From sequence record NC_093713.1: a DNA stretch of 41,184 nucleotides, one strand, 5' to 3'. The notes under the pieces are model-generated. The model had not been told where the DNA came from. It saw only the letters and a program-made list of their open reading frames with translations, and did no database searches. Positions within the stretch are counted from its first letter, which is position 1; each line of letters opens with the position of its first letter. Shown here piece after piece: positions 8,717 to 36,768 of this stretch. Made by a program: the position numbers and the translations under genes. This DNA comes from a phage.

Positions 8717-9213
8717 TGCATCGGGTCCCAAATTCGTGGAAACGTTGATTGTGCAGTTCCGTAGGCTTTAAGGAAACACCCCAGCCCGTCACCATAGCAA
8801 CCGTACAAATCCGGCAGATTGTTAATCAGGCACTGGTTCTCCAGGTCCTGAAACGGCGATTTCTCGGCGGTTGCCGTGAAGGTAATTGTCCAGTTAATGC
8901 CGTCTTCGGTGGACTCCGCGATGGTGGACGTGATGGTTACCTGATAATCCTCGATACCCATGCCGAAGTCGTGCGCCATCCAGAAACTTGACGCACCACC
9001 ATCGACTTTCTCAAGGAACGACAGAAACGCTTGCCGCCCCAGCGCCGATGTGAGCAGGGTTACGCTTATCGGGAACACGTCGTAATACGTGTCACGACCC
9101 TGACGTACCCCGCCGCCAGCTAAATCTACACTCCAGACGTTGTTACGTCTGGTCATCGAGTAGCCTTTCGATACAATTGGCTTAAGGCTACGTGGGAAAT
9201 ATAAGTCGCTCAT
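8713..9213 (-). CDS. minor / distal tail protein (lambda M-like position)
   Basis: 166 aa immediately downstream of tape measure; start overlaps tape measure stop (TAATG). Confidence 0.45.
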   Translation of the reverse strand: MSDLYFPRSLKPIVSKGYSMTRRNNVWSVDLAGGGVRQGRDTYYDVFPISVTLLTSALGRQAFLSFLEKVDGGASSFWMAHDFGMGIEDYQVTITSTIAESTEDGINWTITFTATAEKSPFQDLENQCLINNLPDLYGCYGDGLGCFLKAYGTAQSTFPRIWDPMQ

Positions 9214-11501
9214 TATTTAAACCCCGGCGAGTTTCTTGTGGCTTTGCGGGCCTTGCTAATCTTGCTGTTGCTGTTCTGCAAAGAGGCAGCCACCTGCTCC
9301 TCGATGATGATTCGCAAACGGCCTTCATCATCCTGCTCAGTGGATACGTTGCCGATTTGAGAACTCGTGTTGTTTACGATAGTAACATTAGGCGGGCCGG
9401 AAGAAGACCCGTTTTGCCCCATAATTTCTTTCATCTGCTGTGCTGTGCGAACACGAGATGCGCCAGCAGGCATGATGACTTCTGGTTTACCGCGTTCTGC
9501 GATGGTGGAAGCCTGCCCTGCGGATAACTGTCCCCCCTGTTCACGCGCGGACCTGATAGCGGAAATCTGCGCCATACCCGCCCCAACGGCAGCGGCAGCG
9601 GCTACGGGGGCCAGGAACGGGCCAACTACAGGGATAGCCGCCGTTGACTTGTACGCCTCAATAGCTGCGGTGTACGTGGCTATAGTGGCCTGTACGATAG
9701 CGAATGCCTTGTACGCGCCAGAAGCCTCACCCAACGCAGACCCGATGTTTGAGGCCATGTTACCAAAGGCCGTTGCCGTTGCATCGGCACGTTTGGTTGC
9801 GTATTGCTCGTTGATGGCGTTAAGAGCGGCCTGATACTGCTTCTCGCTAATCAGCCCCTGTTCACGGTATTTATCAGCTACCGCCAGTTTCTGCTGTTCC
9901 TGGATGTCGAGAAGCTCAAGCTCAGTAGCGTTCTGACCCATAATCTGAGCCATGAAGTCGTCACCTTTCTGCTGCTTTTCCTGGGCTTCTTTCTGGCGTT
10001 TATCCAGTTCATCTTGCCGTTTTTGCCCGGCTTCGAGGACGATAGCTGTTTTAGCCTGTTCGTATTCTTTCAGCGACAGCGCGCCCTGGCTGTAGAACTC
10101 TTTTGCCTTAGCCAGTTTCTGCTGTTCCTGCGCGTCGATAGCCTTTAACTCATCGTTGTTCTGGCGAGCCAAAGTGTCGAGGTAATCCTGCGCCTGATTC
10201 CGCAATTGTTCTGCTTTCTTGGCGGCGGCTTTTGCCGCTTTATCGTCGGTGTTTCCTGCCCCGCCAGTTCCGCCCTTTTTATTAACAAGACTGGCTAAGT
10301 CAATTTCTTGCTTCTTGCGCTCGTCGTACTGCTTGCGCTGTTCCTCAATTTCTTTCTTACGCTGCTTAGACCTGTTGGTAATGGCCTGTGATTCTGCCTC
10401 TGCGCGTTTTATGCTAGCGGCGTACGCGGCGTCGGCCTCTGCGGTCAGGTTTTTAAATGTTAGCGCCGCCGTTTTGCTCGGGTCAAACACGTCGGCAAGG
10501 GTCTGCCCTAACGCTACAGCGTAATCGTCGATGCGCTGGAACCACGCAATAACCTCGTGAAATGTCTGCTGGATGTCCGGCAACCACTCACGGATGGCAT
10601 CCGGTATAGTCCCCAGCGAGTCAGACATATCAACGGATTTGTCCTCGGTATCGAATGCCAGGTCATTCAAGGCGTCGGAAATAAACTTGAATGACTCATT
10701 GAACAGCGCCACCCAATCCTGGAGCGTGGCGGCTATCTCATTAGACGCGATGGCGTCGGTAAGCGCCGTGATAGCGTCTTCCGCTGTGGCCGCTTGCTCA
10801 CCTACGGCGTCGCCAAAACCAGACTGCGCCACCGCAAGAACAAGACCGTCGAAGGAGTCGGCGAGGCTCGATAACTGGCCGTCTAGCGTCTTAGAGCGCG
10901 TCTCCATCGCCCCGGCAAAATCGGTGTTGCCGATATTCAGGAGGTATTTCTGAATCTCTTCGGAGTTCTTCTTAACCGTGGTAGTTACGCCGCGGAACGT
11001 GAACGAAACTGTATCTGCCTGTTGCGACGACTTGATGCCGAACTCTTTTAAGCGCTCAAATTCAAATGTACTGGCGTCGGCAACTGCCTCAATCATCTGA
11101 TTAAGGTCTTTACCCATAGCCGCCGCGGTGTTGCCGTAGGAGATTAACGCCTCTTTGCTGGGGTTCAGACCGAGCGCAACGAGCTTGGTAAACCCCTCTA
11201 CCGCCTGATTGAGACCGTACGGGGTCTCTTTTGCGAACTGTTGCAGGACGCTGAAAGCCTTAGCCGCGTTCTCGGCGCTCCCGGTCATCGTGATGAGGCC
11301 GGAGTTCAGCTTATCGAAGTTTCGCTGGGAATCCACCAGCGCGCTGAACACCTGCTTAGCGGTTTCCAGACTGACAACGGCGGCGGCGGCGGCCCCCGCC
11401 GCCTTGGTAAGCCCGTTCAGTTGTGATGTGGTTTTATCGACGCCGGTCGATGATACTCGTACTATCAAGCTAGCGGTATCAGCCATGATTTCTACCTTCA
11501 A
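9213..11501 (-). CDS. tail tape measure protein
   Basis: 762 aa, Ala/Gln/Glu/Lys-rich and helical in character, directly downstream of the tail chaperone pair; probable ATG start at 11486 with SD AAGGT (track start is TTG at 11501). Confidence 0.85.
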   Translation of the reverse strand: MKVEIMADTASLIVRVSSTGVDKTTSQLNGLTKAAGAAAAAVVSLETAKQVFSALVDSQRNFDKLNSGLITMTGSAENAAKAFSVLQQFAKETPYGLNQAVEGFTKLVALGLNPSKEALISYGNTAAAMGKDLNQMIEAVADASTFEFERLKEFGIKSSQQADTVSFTFRGVTTTVKKNSEEIQKYLLNIGNTDFAGAMETRSKTLDGQLSSLADSFDGLVLAVAQSGFGDAVGEQAATAEDAITALTDAIASNEIAATLQDWVALFNESFKFISDALNDLAFDTEDKSVDMSDSLGTIPDAIREWLPDIQQTFHEVIAWFQRIDDYAVALGQTLADVFDPSKTAALTFKNLTAEADAAYAASIKRAEAESQAITNRSKQRKKEIEEQRKQYDERKKQEIDLASLVNKKGGTGGAGNTDDKAAKAAAKKAEQLRNQAQDYLDTLARQNNDELKAIDAQEQQKLAKAKEFYSQGALSLKEYEQAKTAIVLEAGQKRQDELDKRQKEAQEKQQKGDDFMAQIMGQNATELELLDIQEQQKLAVADKYREQGLISEKQYQAALNAINEQYATKRADATATAFGNMASNIGSALGEASGAYKAFAIVQATIATYTAAIEAYKSTAAIPVVGPFLAPVAAAAAVGAGMAQISAIRSAREQGGQLSAGQASTIAERGKPEVIMPAGASRVRTAQQMKEIMGQNGSSSGPPNVTIVNNTSSQIGNVSTEQDDEGRLRIIIEEQVAASLQNSNSKISKARKATRNSPGFK

Positions 11502-11811
11502 AGATTGCTTCTAAGCCCATGATAATGTCTATCTCGAACAGGCTAAGCTGTTTTTGCGTAACATCGAGATAGGCTTTCAGGTCTTGCCACGTAACAGATT
11601 CTCTTGCAAACAATACTACAGCGTCCTCGCGCACGTGTCGCGTAAACTTAATGTCGCAATACGTCTCAAAGGTGGATATAAAAAGGGGCGGGCATTCTGG
11701 CCCACCCCGTCGCGCTGCACGTTTTTTCTTATCGATTACACCCATCGCGATAAGCGCCTGTTCGTGTCCGTCGGCGATAGAATCAAACTCTCTGATTTTA
11801 TGCTTATCCAC
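11479..11811 (-). CDS. tail assembly chaperone, T segment (probably expressed as a G-T fusion by -1 frameshift)
   Basis: ORF is in the -1 frame relative to 11844..12260 and is open from 11862, overlapping the last 6 codons of the upstream gene. Confidence 0.5.
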   Translation of the reverse strand: MDKHKIREFDSIADGHEQALIAMGVIDKKKRAARRGGPECPPLFISTFETYCDIKFTRHVREDAVVLFARESVTWQDLKAYLDVTQKQLSLFEIDIIMGLEAIFEGRNHG

Positions 11812-11843
11812 AAACTCGTAGGTGGCGAACCTGTACAGCGCGT

Positions 11844-12260
11844 CTACTTTTCCTGTAATGCTTTACGCTCGGCGTTATGGAACGCCGCCACCTGTGTACC
11901 TAATGCCTTGAATTGGTCGAGCAATTTGCTAAACGCTTCCTTAGAGAAAGGCTCGTCAAAGCTCCAGCCGTTTACTACTTCTGCCGCAAGTTGCCGGTTG
12001 AGGTCTTCTGCCAGTTCGTTAACCGCCAGGTTATATTCAGTATAATCACCAGAGTCTTTGGCAGCTTTTTCCAGTTCTTCAAAACGTGCCAGCCCGCGGC
12101 GGTACGCAATAATGAAAGCACGCCCCGCTTTAACGGCGGCATCCGCATCTGGATTTACAACGTTAAGCCACTCACCGGAGTCTTCGCCATTCGGCAGGAG
12201 AATCGGCATCTTCTTGCCCGCCAGTGCTTTCTCTTCGAAATAAAAATCAGAAAGTTTCAT
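11844..12260 (-). CDS. tail assembly chaperone (lambda G-like)
   Basis: 138 aa, immediately upstream of tape measure; SD AAGGA before the ATG. Confidence 0.55.
   Translation of the reverse strand: MKLSDFYFEEKALAGKKMPILLPNGEDSGEWLNVVNPDADAAVKAGRAFIIAYRRGLARFEELEKAAKDSGDYTEYNLAVNELAEDLNRQLAAEVVNGWSFDEPFSKEAFSKLLDQFKALGTQVAAFHNAERKALQEK
11847..11853 (-). promoter_or_regulatory. candidate -1 programmed ribosomal frameshift site (mRNA G GAA AAG followed by TAG)
   Basis: A-site AAG to AAA slip is possible at the last sense codons of the G-like ORF; downstream frame open for ~120 codons. Confidence 0.4.
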
Positions 12261-12368
12261 TCTTTAATCCTTTGGTTAAGAGGTTACAGGTTAACGATAA
12301 ATGCGCCAGACGGGAACCACCCGCTTTTCGTGTGCGACACTAGGCGCAAAATTATTCTATCACATTAC

Positions 12369-12397
12369 TTGCACACCCCAATATAATAGGGTACTAT
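12369..12397 (+). promoter_or_regulatory. sigma70-like promoter (TTGCAC-N17-TACTAT) carrying the conserved palindromic element
   Basis: Element AATAGGGTACTATTCA at 12380..12400; same architecture on the - strand at 30306..30334 and 31115..31143. Confidence 0.55.
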
Positions 12398-12427
12398 TCA
12401 CTTACACCAACAATGGAGGGATTTAAA

Positions 12428-12619
12428 ATGTCAAGTTTACCAGTTTCCTTAATTCTGTTTGCACTTCTCGTTTATTTTGCGCCTTTCCTGGTTGCGTACT
12501 TCCGTAACCATAAAGCGAAGTTAGCGATATTCATGGCTAATCTGTTTCTTGGCTGGGCGCTGCTGCCGTGGGTCTTTATTTTAATCTGGGCGTGCAACTC
12601 GAATGTTAACGAGAAGTGA
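12428..12619 (+). CDS. superinfection immunity-like small membrane protein (Imm_superinfect-like)
   Basis: 63 aa from the ATG preceded by GGAGGG; sequence FRNHKAKLAIFMANLFLGWALLPWVFILIWA matches the family signature as recalled; two hydrophobic segments. Confidence 0.6.
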   Translation: MSSLPVSLILFALLVYFAPFLVAYFRNHKAKLAIFMANLFLGWALLPWVFILIWACNSNVNEK

Positions 12620-12657
12620 GCTAGTATAGGACAAATCCTAAACACGAGGAAGTAAGT

Positions 12658-13788
12658 ATGGCCCAGAAGAAAATAACCGACGAACAGTTGCAGGAAGAAT
12701 TGAACGCCGGGATGAAGAATATCGATATAGCTCGTAAATACGGCATCTCTGACCGCGTTATCCGTATCCGTAAAGCGAAGCTGGCTAAGAAAGGCGTAGG
12801 CCACGGGCGCGACGTTAGTCACCTTGTGCCGGACGGCTACAAGATTAAAGGAACGTCGTCGCTGGTGGACGAGTTCGGCAACACTAAGTTGCAATGGGTT
12901 AAGACAGACACCGATGCTGAACGTCAGGTCGAGTTGATGAAAGCCGTAATCGAAGGAATGAAATCAGAGATTACGCCAGTCGCCCCTGTTAAAGCAGCAC
13001 GCGCCAAACGCGACGGCAAGCTACTCAATCTTTACACGGTATCTGATTTTCACCTCGGTATGCTGGCATGGGCTGACGAGAGCGGCGACGACTGGGATAT
13101 GAAAATCGCGGAAGACCTGTTCTCTCGTTGGTTCGATGCCGCGTTTCAGAAAGCGCCGGATGCAGGAACAGGAGTTATTAATCTGCTCGGCGACCTTGCG
13201 CACTTCGATAGCCTGGACGCCGTTACACCGGCAAGTGGTCATGTTCTCGATGCGGACACGCGCTATCAGAAACTGGTCCGCTACATGATTCGTATGGTCC
13301 GCCGTGTCGTTGATATGGCCCTTGTTAAGCATAAAAATGTTCGCTTGCTTATTGTGCAAGGTAACCACGACGAAAGCGGAATGATTTGGTTAGCTGAGAT
13401 GTTCAGCACACTGTACGACAATGAGCCTCGTGTGTTCGTCGATACGTCGCCGGATGTTTACAAGATGGTGCAACACGGCAAAACGACGCTGTTCTTTACA
13501 CACGGGCATAAATGCCGGTTTGAGGTGGTCGAACCCATTATGATAGCTAAGTTCAGAAAAGCATTTGGCGAAAGCGAGTACAGTTACGCACATGTCGGGC
13601 ATCTCCACCACCAAAAGATTGTAGAAAGCCGTAACATGGTTGTTGAGCAACATCGCACCTTAGCGGCGAAAGATGCATATGCTTCCCGCGGCGGGTGGAT
13701 GTCAGGCCGTAGCGCAAACGTAATTACTTATAGCGCCGAATATGGCGAGGTCGCACGTTTAACTATTTCACCGGAGATGCTTGGATGA
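12658..13788 (+). CDS. calcineurin-like metallophosphoesterase with N-terminal HTH domain
   Basis: 376 aa; motifs SDFHLG, LGDLAHFD, QGNHDE, THGH, GHLHH; N-terminal MKNIDIARKYGISDRVIRIRKAK HTH; SD GAGGAA. Confidence 0.7.
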   Translation: MAQKKITDEQLQEELNAGMKNIDIARKYGISDRVIRIRKAKLAKKGVGHGRDVSHLVPDGYKIKGTSSLVDEFGNTKLQWVKTDTDAERQVELMKAVIEGMKSEITPVAPVKAARAKRDGKLLNLYTVSDFHLGMLAWADESGDDWDMKIAEDLFSRWFDAAFQKAPDAGTGVINLLGDLAHFDSLDAVTPASGHVLDADTRYQKLVRYMIRMVRRVVDMALVKHKNVRLLIVQGNHDESGMIWLAEMFSTLYDNEPRVFVDTSPDVYKMVQHGKTTLFFTHGHKCRFEVVEPIMIAKFRKAFGESEYSYAHVGHLHHQKIVESRNMVVEQHRTLAAKDAYASRGGWMSGRSANVITYSAEYGEVARLTISPEMLG

Positions 13789-14270
13789 AAGATATTGTGA
13801 TTTTCGATTTAGACGGGACATTGGCAGATGGTACTCATCGTTTACACCTGCTGCCGAAAGATAACTACGGCGAAACCTGGGCGTGGAAACCATTTAACAT
13901 GGCGTGCAAAGACGATGCACCCATTAAAGATAACATCGAACTGTGTAACGCCCTTAATCGTCGCTATGCCGTTATTATCTTAACAGGCCGTAGTGATGAC
14001 GCGGAAAAAGAAACCAGAATGTGGTTGCAGCGCCACCGCGTCGAATTTTATCAGTTAATCATGCGCAGCAAACACGACAACAGAAAAGACATCGTAATTA
14101 AAGAAGAGGTGTTGCGTGCTATTGGGCCGGAGAGAATCTTGTGTGCATTCGACGACTCTCCAGCGGTAATAAAGCATTTCCGCGAACTCGGCATAACCAC
14201 TCACGCAGTTACTGAATACGACTGTAACGGGAACTCTACACACTTAAAACCACATGGGAGTGATAAATAA
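13785..14270 (+). CDS. HAD-superfamily phosphatase, similar to the 3'-phosphatase domain of T4 polynucleotide kinase
   Basis: 161 aa; DxDGT motif IVIFDLDGTLA; recalled alignment to T4 Pnk phosphatase (VIILTGRSD..., KEEVL...AFDD); start overlaps upstream stop (ATGA). Confidence 0.7.
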   Translation: MKDIVIFDLDGTLADGTHRLHLLPKDNYGETWAWKPFNMACKDDAPIKDNIELCNALNRRYAVIILTGRSDDAEKETRMWLQRHRVEFYQLIMRSKHDNRKDIVIKEEVLRAIGPERILCAFDDSPAVIKHFRELGITTHAVTEYDCNGNSTHLKPHGSDK

Positions 14271-14824
14271 TGGCTAAGGTAATTATTCTTAATGGTCCTG
14301 CGGGCTGCGGGAAAGACACACTTGCTAGGGCGCTGGTAGAAATGGGCTTTGCGAAGGGTGTCGCCAGTTTCAAGAATCCGATGTTCAATATTGCTATGGC
14401 TGCGTTAGGCCAGGATGCTTACCGCGAGTTTCTCGACGGCTACGACGACCGGGCGCGGAAAGAAAAGCCAGAGGGTTTCCTTAACGGGTTGTCTCGGCGT
14501 CAGTTCATGATTGCCATTTCCGAGCAATTCATTAAACCGGTATTCGGTGATGATTATTTCGGTAAGTATCTTGCCGGAAACTTGCCCGACGGCGACGAAG
14601 TTTTTGTGGTGTCTGATGGCGGGTTCGCCAGCGAAGTAGCCCCTATCGTTGCCGCAGGGCATGATGTGAGAATCGTCCGCTTGCACAGAGACGGCCATAC
14701 GTTTGAAGGGGACAGCCGCGGTTACCTGTACGATATTGATGGTGTAAAAGATTATGACACCTACATCATACCGGGTTACGTTAAATCGAACGCTATAGGC
14801 ATTGCTTTAAGATTAGGTTTGTAA
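14270..14824 (+). CDS. deoxynucleoside monophosphate kinase-like P-loop kinase
   Basis: 184 aa; P-loop GPAGCGKDT and a C-terminal block resembling T4 gp1 dNMP kinase from memory; start overlaps upstream stop (TAATG). Confidence 0.65.
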   Translation: MAKVIILNGPAGCGKDTLARALVEMGFAKGVASFKNPMFNIAMAALGQDAYREFLDGYDDRARKEKPEGFLNGLSRRQFMIAISEQFIKPVFGDDYFGKYLAGNLPDGDEVFVVSDGGFASEVAPIVAAGHDVRIVRLHRDGHTFEGDSRGYLYDIDGVKDYDTYIIPGYVKSNAIGIALRLGL

Positions 14825-14825
14825 G

Positions 14826-14856
14826 AAAAAGGCCCCAAACGGGGCCTTAGTTTTAT
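14826..14856. terminator. bidirectional rho-independent terminator
   Basis: AAAAAGGCCCC-AAAC-GGGGCCTTAGTTTTAT between the convergent island and the major tail gene. Confidence 0.65.
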
Positions 14857-16025
14857 GCGTATGTGATACGCTGAATAACAATAGACGACTGGTACTGGTT
14901 GCCAGTAGCCTGGCCTTCAATAGACTGAGTGATTGACTCAGGTCCTCCAATCTCAGGTGTAACCGCCGTAAGTTCTGCACGTTTCAAACTGAAAGACATA
15001 GCCCCGTTTACCCCCGCCAGAATAGAGTTAATCTCCACCTGCTGCTCGTTGATAAACTTCTGAATCATCGCCATGTCGTACAGCTTACCGGAGATGGAGA
15101 AGGTGTTAGCTGCTCGGCTACGCTCCACAAAGGCCACGTTAGTGTTGCCGAGTTCGAACTGCGCGGACGCGCTGTTGTCGTTGGTGATGGTAAGGCTATC
15201 ACAACGCAACGGCGTAGAGCCATCGAACACGGAAACGTCAACCGAAGAGAACGGCTCATCACCAAAAGTAACAGATGAGAAGTTGGAACCGGTCGGCGGC
15301 GTAGTGAGAATCTCCTGACTGCGACCGATGAATGGGAAGCTGCCAGTTACCATCGCGTTAACAGCCTGTTCGATGGTAAAACCAGAAACTTCCACGCCTT
15401 TGGTTAGTGTGTACGCGTCAGTCCCGCCGCACTGGCCTTTGTACCAGGTGAGAATAGAGAACGTCTTGCACTGGCTTCCCGTTTCCAGTTTATCCCCTGT
15501 CTTAGCGGCGGTAGTTACTGTCTCTGTGGTCAGGGTATGCTGGATACCCGCCCCGGTCACTACCAGCGCCTCTACTGCAGTTACGATAAACGGTTTTGCG
15601 TTGTCACCGGTTAAGTCGGTAAACGCAATCAGGTCGCCCACTTCAACGCCGTCAGAAATAAAGCTACCTTCGGCACGGGTAAAGGTCTTGCCTGCAGGCG
15701 CGACGGTAATTGATAGCCCGGTCAGAGAACTACCGGATTGCCATGTAGAGCCTAAAGCACCCGCCAGCCAGTCGTCCTGGCTTTTCGAGCTAAGCTCAAT
15801 AGCGTATTCTCCGCTAACCTGCTTGTTACCGGTGCGGATTGACGTAGTTTCACGGCTGCCGTCCAGTTCGTTGGAGGTCAGCGTGTCGCGGGTAATGGCA
15901 GGAACGCCACCTGTGTTACGCAATGGCGACCAGACCGGGTTAGTCGGTGTTACGCCCGGGGTAGTTTCTGCCACATAGAATTGCGCAGTATTCGCGCCCT
16001 TAAAAGGAGTTGTAGCCATATTCAC
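14853..16025 (-). CDS. major tail protein (putative)
   Basis: Large ORF after head-tail joining genes and before tail chaperones; probable ATG at 16019 with SD AGAGG (track start is GTG). Confidence 0.5.
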   Translation of the reverse strand: MNMATTPFKGANTAQFYVAETTPGVTPTNPVWSPLRNTGGVPAITRDTLTSNELDGSRETTSIRTGNKQVSGEYAIELSSKSQDDWLAGALGSTWQSGSSLTGLSITVAPAGKTFTRAEGSFISDGVEVGDLIAFTDLTGDNAKPFIVTAVEALVVTGAGIQHTLTTETVTTAAKTGDKLETGSQCKTFSILTWYKGQCGGTDAYTLTKGVEVSGFTIEQAVNAMVTGSFPFIGRSQEILTTPPTGSNFSSVTFGDEPFSSVDVSVFDGSTPLRCDSLTITNDNSASAQFELGNTNVAFVERSRAANTFSISGKLYDMAMIQKFINEQQVEINSILAGVNGAMSFSLKRAELTAVTPEIGGPESITQSIEGQATGNQYQSSIVIQRITYA

Positions 16026-30274: not shown

Positions 30275-30305
30275 ATTCTGTCTCCCCTCTCGTTTGTGTA
30301 AATGA

Positions 30306-30334
30306 ATAGTAGCCTATTCTATCTTAGTGTGCAA
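30306..30334 (-). promoter_or_regulatory. sigma70-like promoter (TTGCAC-N17-TACTAT) with conserved palindromic element
   Basis: Element TGAATAGTAGCCTATTCTAT at 30303..30322. Confidence 0.5.
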
Positions 30335-30341
30335 GTAAATT

Positions 30342-31080: not shown

Positions 31081-31114
31081 AACCCTCACTCCTCTGTCTC
31101 GTTTTGATAAGTGA

Positions 31115-31143
31115 ATAGTATCCTATTATGTTGGGGTGTGCAA
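31115..31143 (-). promoter_or_regulatory. sigma70-like leftward early promoter (TTGCAC-N17-TACTAT) with conserved palindromic element
   Basis: Near-identical to the 12369..12397 promoter; element TGAATAGTATCCTATTATG at 31112..31130. Confidence 0.55.
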
Positions 31144-31516
31144 GAGATTAGTTACGTTGCCGTTGTGATTCTTCAGGTAGGGTTGTGCCTTTATTCTTAT
31201 TACTTGGTAACTAAAGGGCAGGCCCTAAGCCTGCCCAATAATCGTTACATTTTTACGGTTGCGAATCTACGGCACTTTAAGAAAATCAGATACTTAAGAT
31301 ATATTCCGCCGATGGGAATAGAGCTTGCCCAGGGCAACCGGAGATACTTAGGAAGGAAAGTTACGATAATTCGAATGTTCAGTAAACTGCCGCCTAACAC
31401 TTCGCGTTGGGCGCTCGTTTTCGGCGGGTTTTACAAGGTGAACAAGAATCAAAGTAACTAAGATACAGAAGCACCTTAAACGAAGATTTCCATAATGTCA
31501 ATAGGTGCGATTATGT

Positions 31517-34304: not shown

Positions 34305-34323
34305 AAGGGGCGTTAAGCCCCTT
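34305..34323. terminator. bidirectional terminator hairpin between primase and repressor genes
   Basis: AAGGGGC-GTTAA-GCCCCTT. Confidence 0.5.
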
Positions 34324-34528
34324 CACCGAACGCCAGCCACTTGGCATCTACTTGCAGCACTTCCGCCAGTTTAAACAGCGTCGCTGGGCGGACGTCCTTA
34401 GTTACACCGAGTGCCAGCTGGTTAATCGCGCCCTGGGAAACACCGGCCAGGACAGCCAGACGGCGTTGGGAAATGCCGAGTTCTTTACGGCGCTGTTCTA
34501 CACGGATGCCTAGTTCAGATGGTTGCAT
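34313..34528 (-). CDS. XRE-family HTH transcriptional repressor (Cro/CI-type)
   Basis: 71 aa; QRRLAVLAGVSQGAINQLALG HTH; SD AAGGAG; transcribed divergently from the operator-containing rightward promoter. Confidence 0.75.
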   Translation of the reverse strand: MQPSELGIRVEQRRKELGISQRRLAVLAGVSQGAINQLALGVTKDVRPATLFKLAEVLQVDAKWLAFGEGA

Positions 34529-34555: not shown

Positions 34556-34622
34556 GTGAATAGTACCATATTAATTATTTTAGAAAAGCCCATTGACAAC
34601 GTGAATAGTTCGCTATTATAGT
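34556..34622. promoter_or_regulatory. divergent promoter region with two copies of the conserved palindromic element
   Basis: Rightward TTGACA-N18-TATAGT overlapping GTGAATAGTTCGCTATTATAGTT; second, degenerate copy TGTGAATAGTACCATATTAAT toward the repressor gene, whose own -35 is poor. Confidence 0.55.
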
Positions 34623-36739: not shown

Positions 36740-36768
36740 TTGACACCTGAATAGTTAGCTATTATAGT
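36740..36768 (+). promoter_or_regulatory. sigma70-like promoter (TTGACA-N17-TATAGT) with conserved palindromic element
   Basis: CTGAATAGTTAGCTATTATAGTT in the spacer and -10. Confidence 0.55.

Follow-up and report, generated by a model that had tools for sequence, protein, structure and literature searches.

The window analysed here is the whole of the phage sequence NC_093713.1, 41,184 nucleotides (nt) long, in which four genes on the plus strand stand between tail genes on the minus strand. They encode an Imm-type superinfection immunity protein, a metallophosphoesterase (MPE) with a predicted N-terminal helix-turn-helix (HTH), a HAD phosphatase of the T4 Pnk type and a P-loop kinase of the NMP-kinase fold (Table 1). 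From 12300 to 14900 the window shares 96-98% DNA identity with Escherichia phages K1ind3, K1ind2, K1ind1 and K1G (about 98% with K1ind2 and K1ind3 over the 2.6-kb region). It is a Kagunavirus of the Guernseyvirinae, and 41,184 bp is essentially a complete genome of this genus. The 2.6-kb region matches 211 phage records, and in 48 of these the match spans at least 80% of the region. RefSeq places this gene set of K1ind2 between the tail assembly chaperone and a "putative tail protein", under the product names immunity to superinfection, DNA repair exonuclease, polynucleotide kinase and ATP-binding protein. We read the region as a self-contained plus-strand operon at a recombination hot-spot between the Kagunavirus tail-tube and tail-chaperone genes.

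An initial annotation of this DNA had described four plus-strand genes between minus-strand tail genes, the last three of them start/stop coupled. The list of open reading frames (ORFs) and the family matches of the flanking tube (PF18906) and chaperone genes confirmed the first point. The coupling was also found, with the overlap ATGA between MPE stop and HAD start and the overlap TAATG between HAD stop and kinase start. For Imm, the start at 12428 is the likeliest, with GGAGGG 7 nt upstream, and the annotated start in K1ind2 agrees. The G+C content of Imm (43.8%) and of the HAD gene (45.1%) is under the genome mean of 51.3%.

Table 1. The plus-strand operon, its control elements and the surrounding features in the window (aa, amino acids)
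Feature	Position	Strand	Remarks
Promoter-like site with 37-nt promoter/operator element	12359..12404	+	sigma70-like ATCACA-17-TATAAT at 12359-12387; element at 12368-12404
Imm, T4-type superinfection immunity protein, 63 aa, two predicted transmembrane helices	12428..12619	+	slot 1 cargo; alternative upstream ATG at 12413
HTH-tethered (predicted) MPE, 376 aa	12658..13788	+	constant anchor gene; phrog_704
Stand-alone T4-Pnk-type HAD phosphatase, 161 aa	13785..14270	+	slot 2 cargo, gene 1; PF25109
NMP-kinase-fold P-loop kinase (GCGKDT), 184 aa	14270..14824	+	slot 2 cargo, gene 2; phrog_139
Bidirectional intrinsic terminator	14829..14848	both strands	common to the operon and the convergent tail-tube gene
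Tail tube protein gene	14853..16025	-	flank; PF18906, 1.2e-41
Tail assembly chaperone gene	11844..12260	-	flank; PF08748 and phrog_15027 matches
Tail chaperone frameshift-partner ORF	11479..11811	-	
Tape measure gene	9213-11501	-	beyond the chaperone genes
Third full copy of the 37-nt element	30299..30335	-	upstream of minus-strand genes leading to holin and endolysin
Second full copy of the 37-nt element	31108..31144	-	upstream of small minus-strand genes, function unassigned

The MPE matches phrog_704 at 9e-167, and its Pfam scores are marginally under the cut-offs (25.2 versus 27 for PF12850, 19.6 versus 21.5 for PF00149). All five MPE motifs with metal ligands (DxH, GD, GNH, H and GHxH) are there. 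Alignments of 55 and 89 diverse homologues showed that the ligands D130, H132, D179, N236, H237, H282, H315 and H317 are invariant and that H182 of motif II (GDxxH) is invariant or nearly so, and also revealed the family-specific motifs VTPxSGHxLDxDxR and TLAAKDAYASRGGW. The AlphaFold2 (AF2) model of the MPE (pLDDT 84, pTM 0.74) consists of a three-helix HTH (residues 8-44), a beta-hairpin plus helix (61-102) and the MPE core (119-376), as the initial annotation had proposed in outline. More than 100 MPE structures in the PDB were matched by this model at E ≤ 1e-3 in Foldseek. The top matches were Mre11 of T. maritima and M. jannaschii, with E-values from 9.7e-9 to 1e-6 (6x1y at 9.7e-9; 4tug), and the exonuclease PolD DP1 was also among the matches. 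Because of the N-terminal HTH, a DNA substrate is favoured. Judged by its motifs the MPE should be catalytically competent, and it would be tethered to DNA via the predicted HTH; we lean tentatively to a nuclease type. Residues ~332-350 (window 13651-13707) hold a family motif, HRTLAAKDAYASRGGW, which aligns with TLTAGDENDPRGFW of the SbcD/Mre11-like T4 gp47 in a weak hhalign match.

A label of lambda-type Ser/Thr protein phosphatase, given to the homologue in phage Ent3, was ruled out. The MPE motifs are DFH, GDLAH and GNHD, the PPP signatures (GDxHG, GDxVDRG and GNHE) are absent, and no PPP enzyme occurs in the top 50 structural matches. NCBIfam and PADLOC gave nothing informative for MPE function, and the fold search in BFVD returned uncharacterised viral homologues only. 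With the MPE and the kinase as queries, single-sequence and profile searches of the PDB found matches at the level of the HTH or the P-loop only. An exhaustive search recovered MPE homologues in 4,683 clusters at 50% identity (E ≤ 1e-3), or 1,142 clusters at E ≤ 1e-30, nearly all of 370-420 aa, and tblastn found 2,061 phage records. This family is among the larger phage protein families without any experimental function, yet its active site is perfectly conserved.

The HAD protein matches PF25109 (HAD_PNKP) at 6.7e-20, with 72.1 bits against a cut-off of 27.6, and its PDB sequence matches are Pnkp1 (4xrp, 1.7e-6) and the phosphatase domain of T4 PNK. In alignment with T4-type PseT, the residues D8, D10, R19, R69, D98, R100, D102, K106, D123 and D124 are kept, which we take to correspond to residues essential in T4 Pnkp. 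The proposal of a Pnk-like HAD phosphatase was thus upheld, and proper alignment left the catalytic motifs of both the MPE and the HAD protein in place. In T4, the Pnk-type phosphatase is known to act on the 3'-phosphates of DNA, RNA and 3'-dNMPs (deoxynucleoside monophosphates; earlier work cited in PMC7203180).

The kinase belongs to phrog_139, "dNMP kinase" (3.8e-46), which is also the only PHROG matched by T4 gp1 (1.8e-65). Its AF2 model has a pLDDT of 94, and the top Foldseek match in the PDB is the T4 dNMP kinase 1dek (E 5.2e-5, TMq 0.67), in agreement with the likeness to T4 dNMP kinase suggested initially for this GKDT protein. Next in the list come adenylate-kinase-like proteins and animal phosphomevalonate kinase; the top 50 do not include T4 PNK. 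With hhalign, the kinase aligned to T4 gp1 over the N-terminal 74 columns at 72.7% probability. A split T4-type polynucleotide kinase was ruled out, as the alignment with PseT covers a 27-column P-loop only and the fold is nearest to dNMP/NMP kinases. At the level of PHROG and predicted fold, the protein is a distant T4 gp1 relative outside the Pfam family DNMK, and its probable substrates are dNMPs. The gene of T4 dNMP kinase, gene 1 (L014:2650-3375), is likewise embedded among virion genes, namely 57A, 3, 2 and 4.

The first gene of the operon was compared with T4 Imm, which it had been said to resemble. It scores 50.1 bits on PF14373 (Imm_superinfect; cut-off 27.9), where T4 Imm itself scores 58.2 bits, and it matches phrog_1039 at 2e-23 and T4 Imm at 7e-11 over 54 aa in BLASTP. 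Two hydrophobic segments, residues 4-26 and 32-57, are predicted transmembrane helices. By these matches, the protein is a bona fide T4 Imm homologue. It is a predicted two-helix inner-membrane protein and, by analogy with T4 Imm, would be expected to block DNA entry by superinfecting phages.

The operon has its own promoter-like site and its own terminator, both of which had been noticed in the initial annotation. The promoter-like site is embedded in a 37-nt element, CTTGCACACCCCAATATAATAGGGTACTATTCACTTA, which occurs in 3 copies in the window against 0 expected, and the core of this element, ATAGGNTACTATTCA, occurs in 6 copies against 0.15 expected. The core includes a short palindrome, ATAG-N4-CTAT, which corresponds to the palindromic element of the initial annotation and at the operon promoter reads ATAG-GGTA-CTAT and lies over the -10 and +1 region. 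Further core copies are at 34557-34571, 34602-34616 and 36748-36762 (-). Two core copies, in the divergent region, stand next to the start of a 71-aa Cro/CI-like HTH gene (34313-34528, -). The shared operator-like element suggests a small regulon, in which one repressor would govern non-structural promoters. The operator-like element of the operon promoter is, by sequence, common to early and lysis promoters, and we infer that the operon belongs to a repressor-controlled, non-structural promoter class apart from tail-gene transcription. RNA-seq of Kagunavirus K1B4 showed the Imm gene clustering with DNA methylase and polymerase genes, apart from most structural genes (PMC12645636). This is weak support for a non-tail expression class, because the time course covers several infection cycles.

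At the other end of the operon, the terminator hairpin, AAGGCCCC-AAAC-GGGGCCTT, has an 8-bp stem with 6 G-C pairs, is preceded by an A-run and followed by a T-run, and scores on both strands. A scan of the operon for internal terminators revealed no strong one. On the far side of the promoter, the tail chaperone ORFs (11479-12260, -) overlap as is typical of programmed translational frameshift, and in K1ind2 they are given as a joined coding sequence.

The locus was then surveyed in IMG/VR contigs that were sampled by tail-tube homology, independently of the operon genes. As close relatives we took the 34 contigs in which the tube protein was at least 89% identical and the locus included both flanking genes. 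The MPE gene was found between chaperone and tube in all 34, and its neighbours were exchanged. Downstream of the MPE (slot 2), the HAD+kinase pair was present in 16; the other 18 carried a 76-aa ORF (orf76) with or without a 66-aa ORF, an HNH endonuclease or an Ant-like gene, and HAD+kinase and orf76 were mutually exclusive. Upstream of the MPE (slot 1), Imm was present in 24, a 108-aa signal-peptide protein in 9, and the slot was empty in 1. DNA homology with the relatives that lack HAD+kinase stops exactly at the MPE stop (13788) and restarts at 14821-14824, just before the terminator. Around Imm, homology with relatives carrying another first gene stops at about 12399 and restarts at 12626. 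The MPE is the fixed anchor, with cargo on either side of it (Imm and the HAD+kinase pair) that is exchanged at exact breakpoints. Jerseyviruses also carry the MPE with other cargo. This architecture of one anchor and two cargo slots is new in this analysis. The term "accessory island" used initially holds for Imm and HAD+kinase, which are swapped in about half of the close relatives, but not for the MPE, which is constant in the genus.

Twenty-two more distant contigs (within L128-L156), with a tube protein 64-77% identical, had a chaperone-tube interval that was empty or held one small ORF. Because there is no MPE in this interval, the whole operon looks like an insertion relative to those 22 genomes, judged from the chaperone-tube interval only. 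Another contig (IMGVR_UViG_3300045988_018086, present as L017 and L098) is about 94% identical to the window over 7.6 kb and is rotated differently. Its HAD and kinase proteins are 100% identical to those of the window and its Imm and MPE 95-96%, a pattern that suggests a recombination mosaic.

The alternative cargo was also inspected. The orf76 product (MTSKYNRTMTN...VYDVLRAFDIRDPALQHALKKLL...) occurs in IMG/VR loci within L098-L157, for example at L018:6128-6358. Its PHROG matches, to phrog_2452 and to phrog_17613 (labelled "ATPase"), are confined to the C-terminal parts of families of about 240 aa, whose labels are unknown or "ATPase". The idea that orf76 is a mini nucleotide kinase like T7 gp1.7/DUF3310, so that slot 2 would alternate between kinase types, was unsupported, with no Pfam match at E ≤ 0.1. 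The signal-peptide protein of 108-109 aa (phrog_14165; L018:4609-4935, L006:3609-3938) takes the place of Imm in the 9 close relatives and in Jerseyvirus ER7, and is a candidate for another factor of superinfection exclusion.

The order MPE, HAD, kinase is not confined to Kagunavirus. In Klebsiella phage 1513 (Webervirus), the trio follows helicase, VRR-NUC and Dam genes and precedes the holin gene; in Erwinia phage S2 (Eracentumvirus, Autographiviridae), it stands between exonuclease/endonuclease and DNA ligase genes; and two further IMG/VR loci (L038 and L039) have it as well. Pantoea phage AAS23 has the same trio as gp38-40, which its authors class under nucleotide metabolism (PMC8004638). 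The trio order recurs in Drexlerviridae and Autographiviridae, which are unrelated phages. Record counts agree with this pattern, with 468 MPE and 445 kinase records in Klebsiella phages and 373 and 43 in Salmonella phages.

Taken together, we tentatively favour, at somewhat short of even confidence, a role of the operon in the processing of DNA breakdown products and dNMP salvage, carried out, on the most economical reading, by a non-structural operon parked in a permissive tail site. For the substrates, the timing of expression and the logic of the pathway, we infer the following. The operon would be transcribed from its operator-bearing promoter of the early/lysis type and not with the tail genes. 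The MPE would bind DNA via its HTH and cleave the host chromosome or DNA ends to 5'-dNMPs or oligonucleotides, and the HAD phosphatase would strip 3'-phosphates from ends or nucleotides where they would stand in the way of further digestion or reuse. The kinase would convert dNMPs to deoxynucleoside diphosphates (dNDPs), from which host NDP kinase could make deoxynucleoside triphosphates (dNTPs) for phage DNA synthesis. On this reading, Imm would be a superinfection-exclusion moron attached to the operon.

The salvage step is supported by the relatives of the kinase and by the neighbours of kinase genes: a lone kinase gene has thymidylate synthase and ribonucleotide reductase as neighbours in a Vequintavirus, and an exonuclease in a Kuravirus. 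Guernseyvirinae are sensitive to ApeA, a sensor of deoxydinucleotides that are thought to come from host DNA degradation (bioRxiv 10.64898/2026.01.26.701840). This sensitivity is indirect support that Guernseyvirinae degrade host DNA.

Several results weigh against breakdown-product processing and salvage, in which the action of the MPE as a nuclease is the weakest link. Within about two logs of Mre11, the Foldseek list also holds Rv0805 (second), YfcE, purple acid phosphatase, Vps29, GpdQ and the PolD small subunit. The profile search of the MPE gave marginal matches only (GerE 0.056, TmMre11 0.11, "Nuclease MPE" 0.23), and hhalign against T4 gp47 reached 10.9% probability, though the alignment spans all motifs. 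The complete K1ind2 genome has no annotated Rad50/SbcC partner, and in the loci examined no such gene adjoins the MPE. Mre11-type nucleases yield products with 5'-phosphate and 3'-OH ends. Because such products carry a 3'-OH, there is no obvious substrate for a 3'-phosphatase. The kinase did not match Pfam DNMK (PF21448) at E ≤ 0.1, whereas T4 gp1 matches it at 3.1e-107. The MPE occurs without HAD+kinase in Jerseyvirus, Dhillonvirus, Casjensviridae and 18 of the 34 close relatives; because this is so in most lineages, MPE, HAD and kinase need not form one pathway. In the literature, no experimental work on the MPE, HAD or kinase was found in these phage groups. The possibility that these are ordinary conserved genes with documented roles was half borne out: the genes are already annotated in this phage group (PMC8004638; PMC7203180), but no documented experimental role was found.

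The most probable of the alternatives is still unlikely in our view. The MPE could be independent of the HAD+kinase pair and have a role of its own: it might process DNA ends or concatemers, take part in packaging, lysis or regulation, or even function in the virion, and HAD+kinase would be an unrelated dNMP-metabolism cassette that happens to sit in the permissive site downstream. Lone MPE genes are found directly upstream of terS/terL in Dhillonvirus, directly upstream of the holin gene in Warwickvirus, after the lysis genes in RcJoli, and before an HNH gene and head genes in a Vibrio phage. The IMG/VR loci with the MPE have terL 2-4 kb downstream or lysis genes adjacent. The replacement of HAD+kinase by orf76, HNH or Ant, with breakpoints at the MPE stop and the terminator, points the same way, as does Hanrivervirus, where the three genes are dispersed. 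In AAS23, the MPE homologue gp38 was detected by liquid chromatography-tandem mass spectrometry (LC-MS/MS) in purified virions (PMC8004638); it may be packaged or virion-associated, or the detection may reflect carry-over of an abundant protein. Against this alternative stands the order MPE, HAD, kinase itself, often with overlapping stops and starts, in three phage families, which is hard to credit to chance insertion alone.

A bolder form of the nuclease proposal is doubtful in our estimation. The HTH-MPE would be an unrecognised and very widespread class of phage DNA nucleases (at least 4,683 clusters, more than 2,000 phages). Joined by HAD and kinase, it would carry host DNA to dNDPs in three steps, a line that might also clear m6-dAMP or deoxydinucleotide alarms of infection. 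If this is true, the natural variants with HAD+kinase and with orf76 would differ in their sensitivity to nucleotide-alarm defences.

The family of the HAD protein brings in end healing, which we regard as improbable. Here the genes would form a repair module that restores 3'-OH and 5'-phosphate on RNA or DNA cut by defence nucleases (e.g. anticodon nucleases), as T4 Pnk with Rnl or bacterial Pnkp do. The HAD protein does belong to the Pnkp phosphatase family, and its best PDB sequence match is Pnkp1 of the Pnkp1-Rnl-Hen1 RNA repair system. A P-loop kinase and an MPE phosphatase are combined in bacterial Pnkp, and a DNA ligase gene directly follows the kinase gene in Erwinia S2, Vibrio AS51, L038 and L039. 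However, the kinase fold is nearest to dNMP/NMP kinases and its alignment with PseT is restricted to the P-loop. The K1ind2 genome has no annotated ligase, the phage has no tRNA genes, and elsewhere the kinase stands alone among nucleotide-metabolism genes.

Removal of immune signals is very improbable. It would have the MPE and HAD hydrolyse, or the kinase convert, nucleotide messengers or danger signals such as cyclic (oligo)nucleotides, m6-dAMP or deoxydinucleotides. Rv0805, the second structure in the MPE Foldseek list, is a cyclic-nucleotide phosphodiesterase, and the trigger of ApeA, to which Guernseyvirinae are sensitive, is deoxydinucleotides. The HTH, however, indicates DNA rather than small molecules. 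None of the four proteins had a match at E ≤ 0.01 in PADLOC-DB, which holds defence-system proteins, and in the BASEL study the resistance of Kagunavirus isolates to the defence systems tested was not out of the ordinary. To our knowledge, the known anti-CBASS and anti-Pycsar enzymes have other folds. In favour of signal removal, a bacterial defence pair of Calcineurin-CE and HAD works as a two-step nucleotide phosphohydrolase, with m6-dAMP-triggered, stepwise dephosphorylation of dNTPs (bioRxiv 10.64898/2026.01.15.699771), which shows that such pairs can act on nucleotide pools. Finally, chance ORFs were ruled out, because all four have strong family matches and homologues in the hundreds to thousands.

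As a genomic feature the locus is ordinary: it is conserved and publicly annotated, the genus is well sampled and the families are known. The gene set itself is already known: K1ind-type phages under GU-series GenBank accessions carry annotations for all four, and the trio has been published as "nucleotide metabolism". The main remaining value lies in the large uncharacterised MPE family and in the natural cassette variants. The 16 relatives with HAD+kinase and the 18 with other cargo are near-isogenic and have exact breakpoints, so that what the cassette contributes can be tested directly in a small genus that is open to engineering. The promoter with its shared operator also offers a handle on the scheduling of non-structural genes embedded in a late region.

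Compared with known systems, the operon is closest to the locus of K1ind2, K1ind3 and K1G, which has the same four genes in the same place and no substantive difference; the window is an isolate-level variant. The trio of Webervirus 1513, AAS23 and Erwinia S2 has the same order, 42-57% identity and overlapping HAD and kinase genes. In these phages, however, it lies in a DNA-metabolism or lysis region, co-directional with its neighbours and without Imm, whereas the trio of the window is inverted inside the tail module.

Three of the four proteins can be set beside proteins of T4. Imm is homologous to T4 Imm (PF14373) and shares its two-helix membrane topology, at 63 aa against 83 aa. The HAD protein has the family (PF25109), the DxDGT nucleophile motif and the other essential residues in common with the T4 PseT phosphatase domain, but it is a separate protein, without the fusion to a Pnk-type kinase seen in PseT; its neighbouring kinase is of the NMP-kinase type. 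That kinase has T4 gp1 (1dek, PF21448) as its best structural match and shares with it the GKDT P-loop and PHROG 139, but it is shorter (184 aa against 241 aa), only 18% identical and without a match to PF21448. In its predicted MPE fold, its GDxxH form of motif II, GNHD and GHxH, the MPE resembles the Mre11/SbcD nucleases (Mre11 of T. maritima and M. jannaschii, T4 gp47). It differs from them in having no significant sequence-profile match, no Rad50/SbcC partner and no capping domain, and the N-terminal HTH together with the motifs VTPxSGHxLDxDxR and TLAAKDAYASRGGW sets it apart from Mre11/SbcD.

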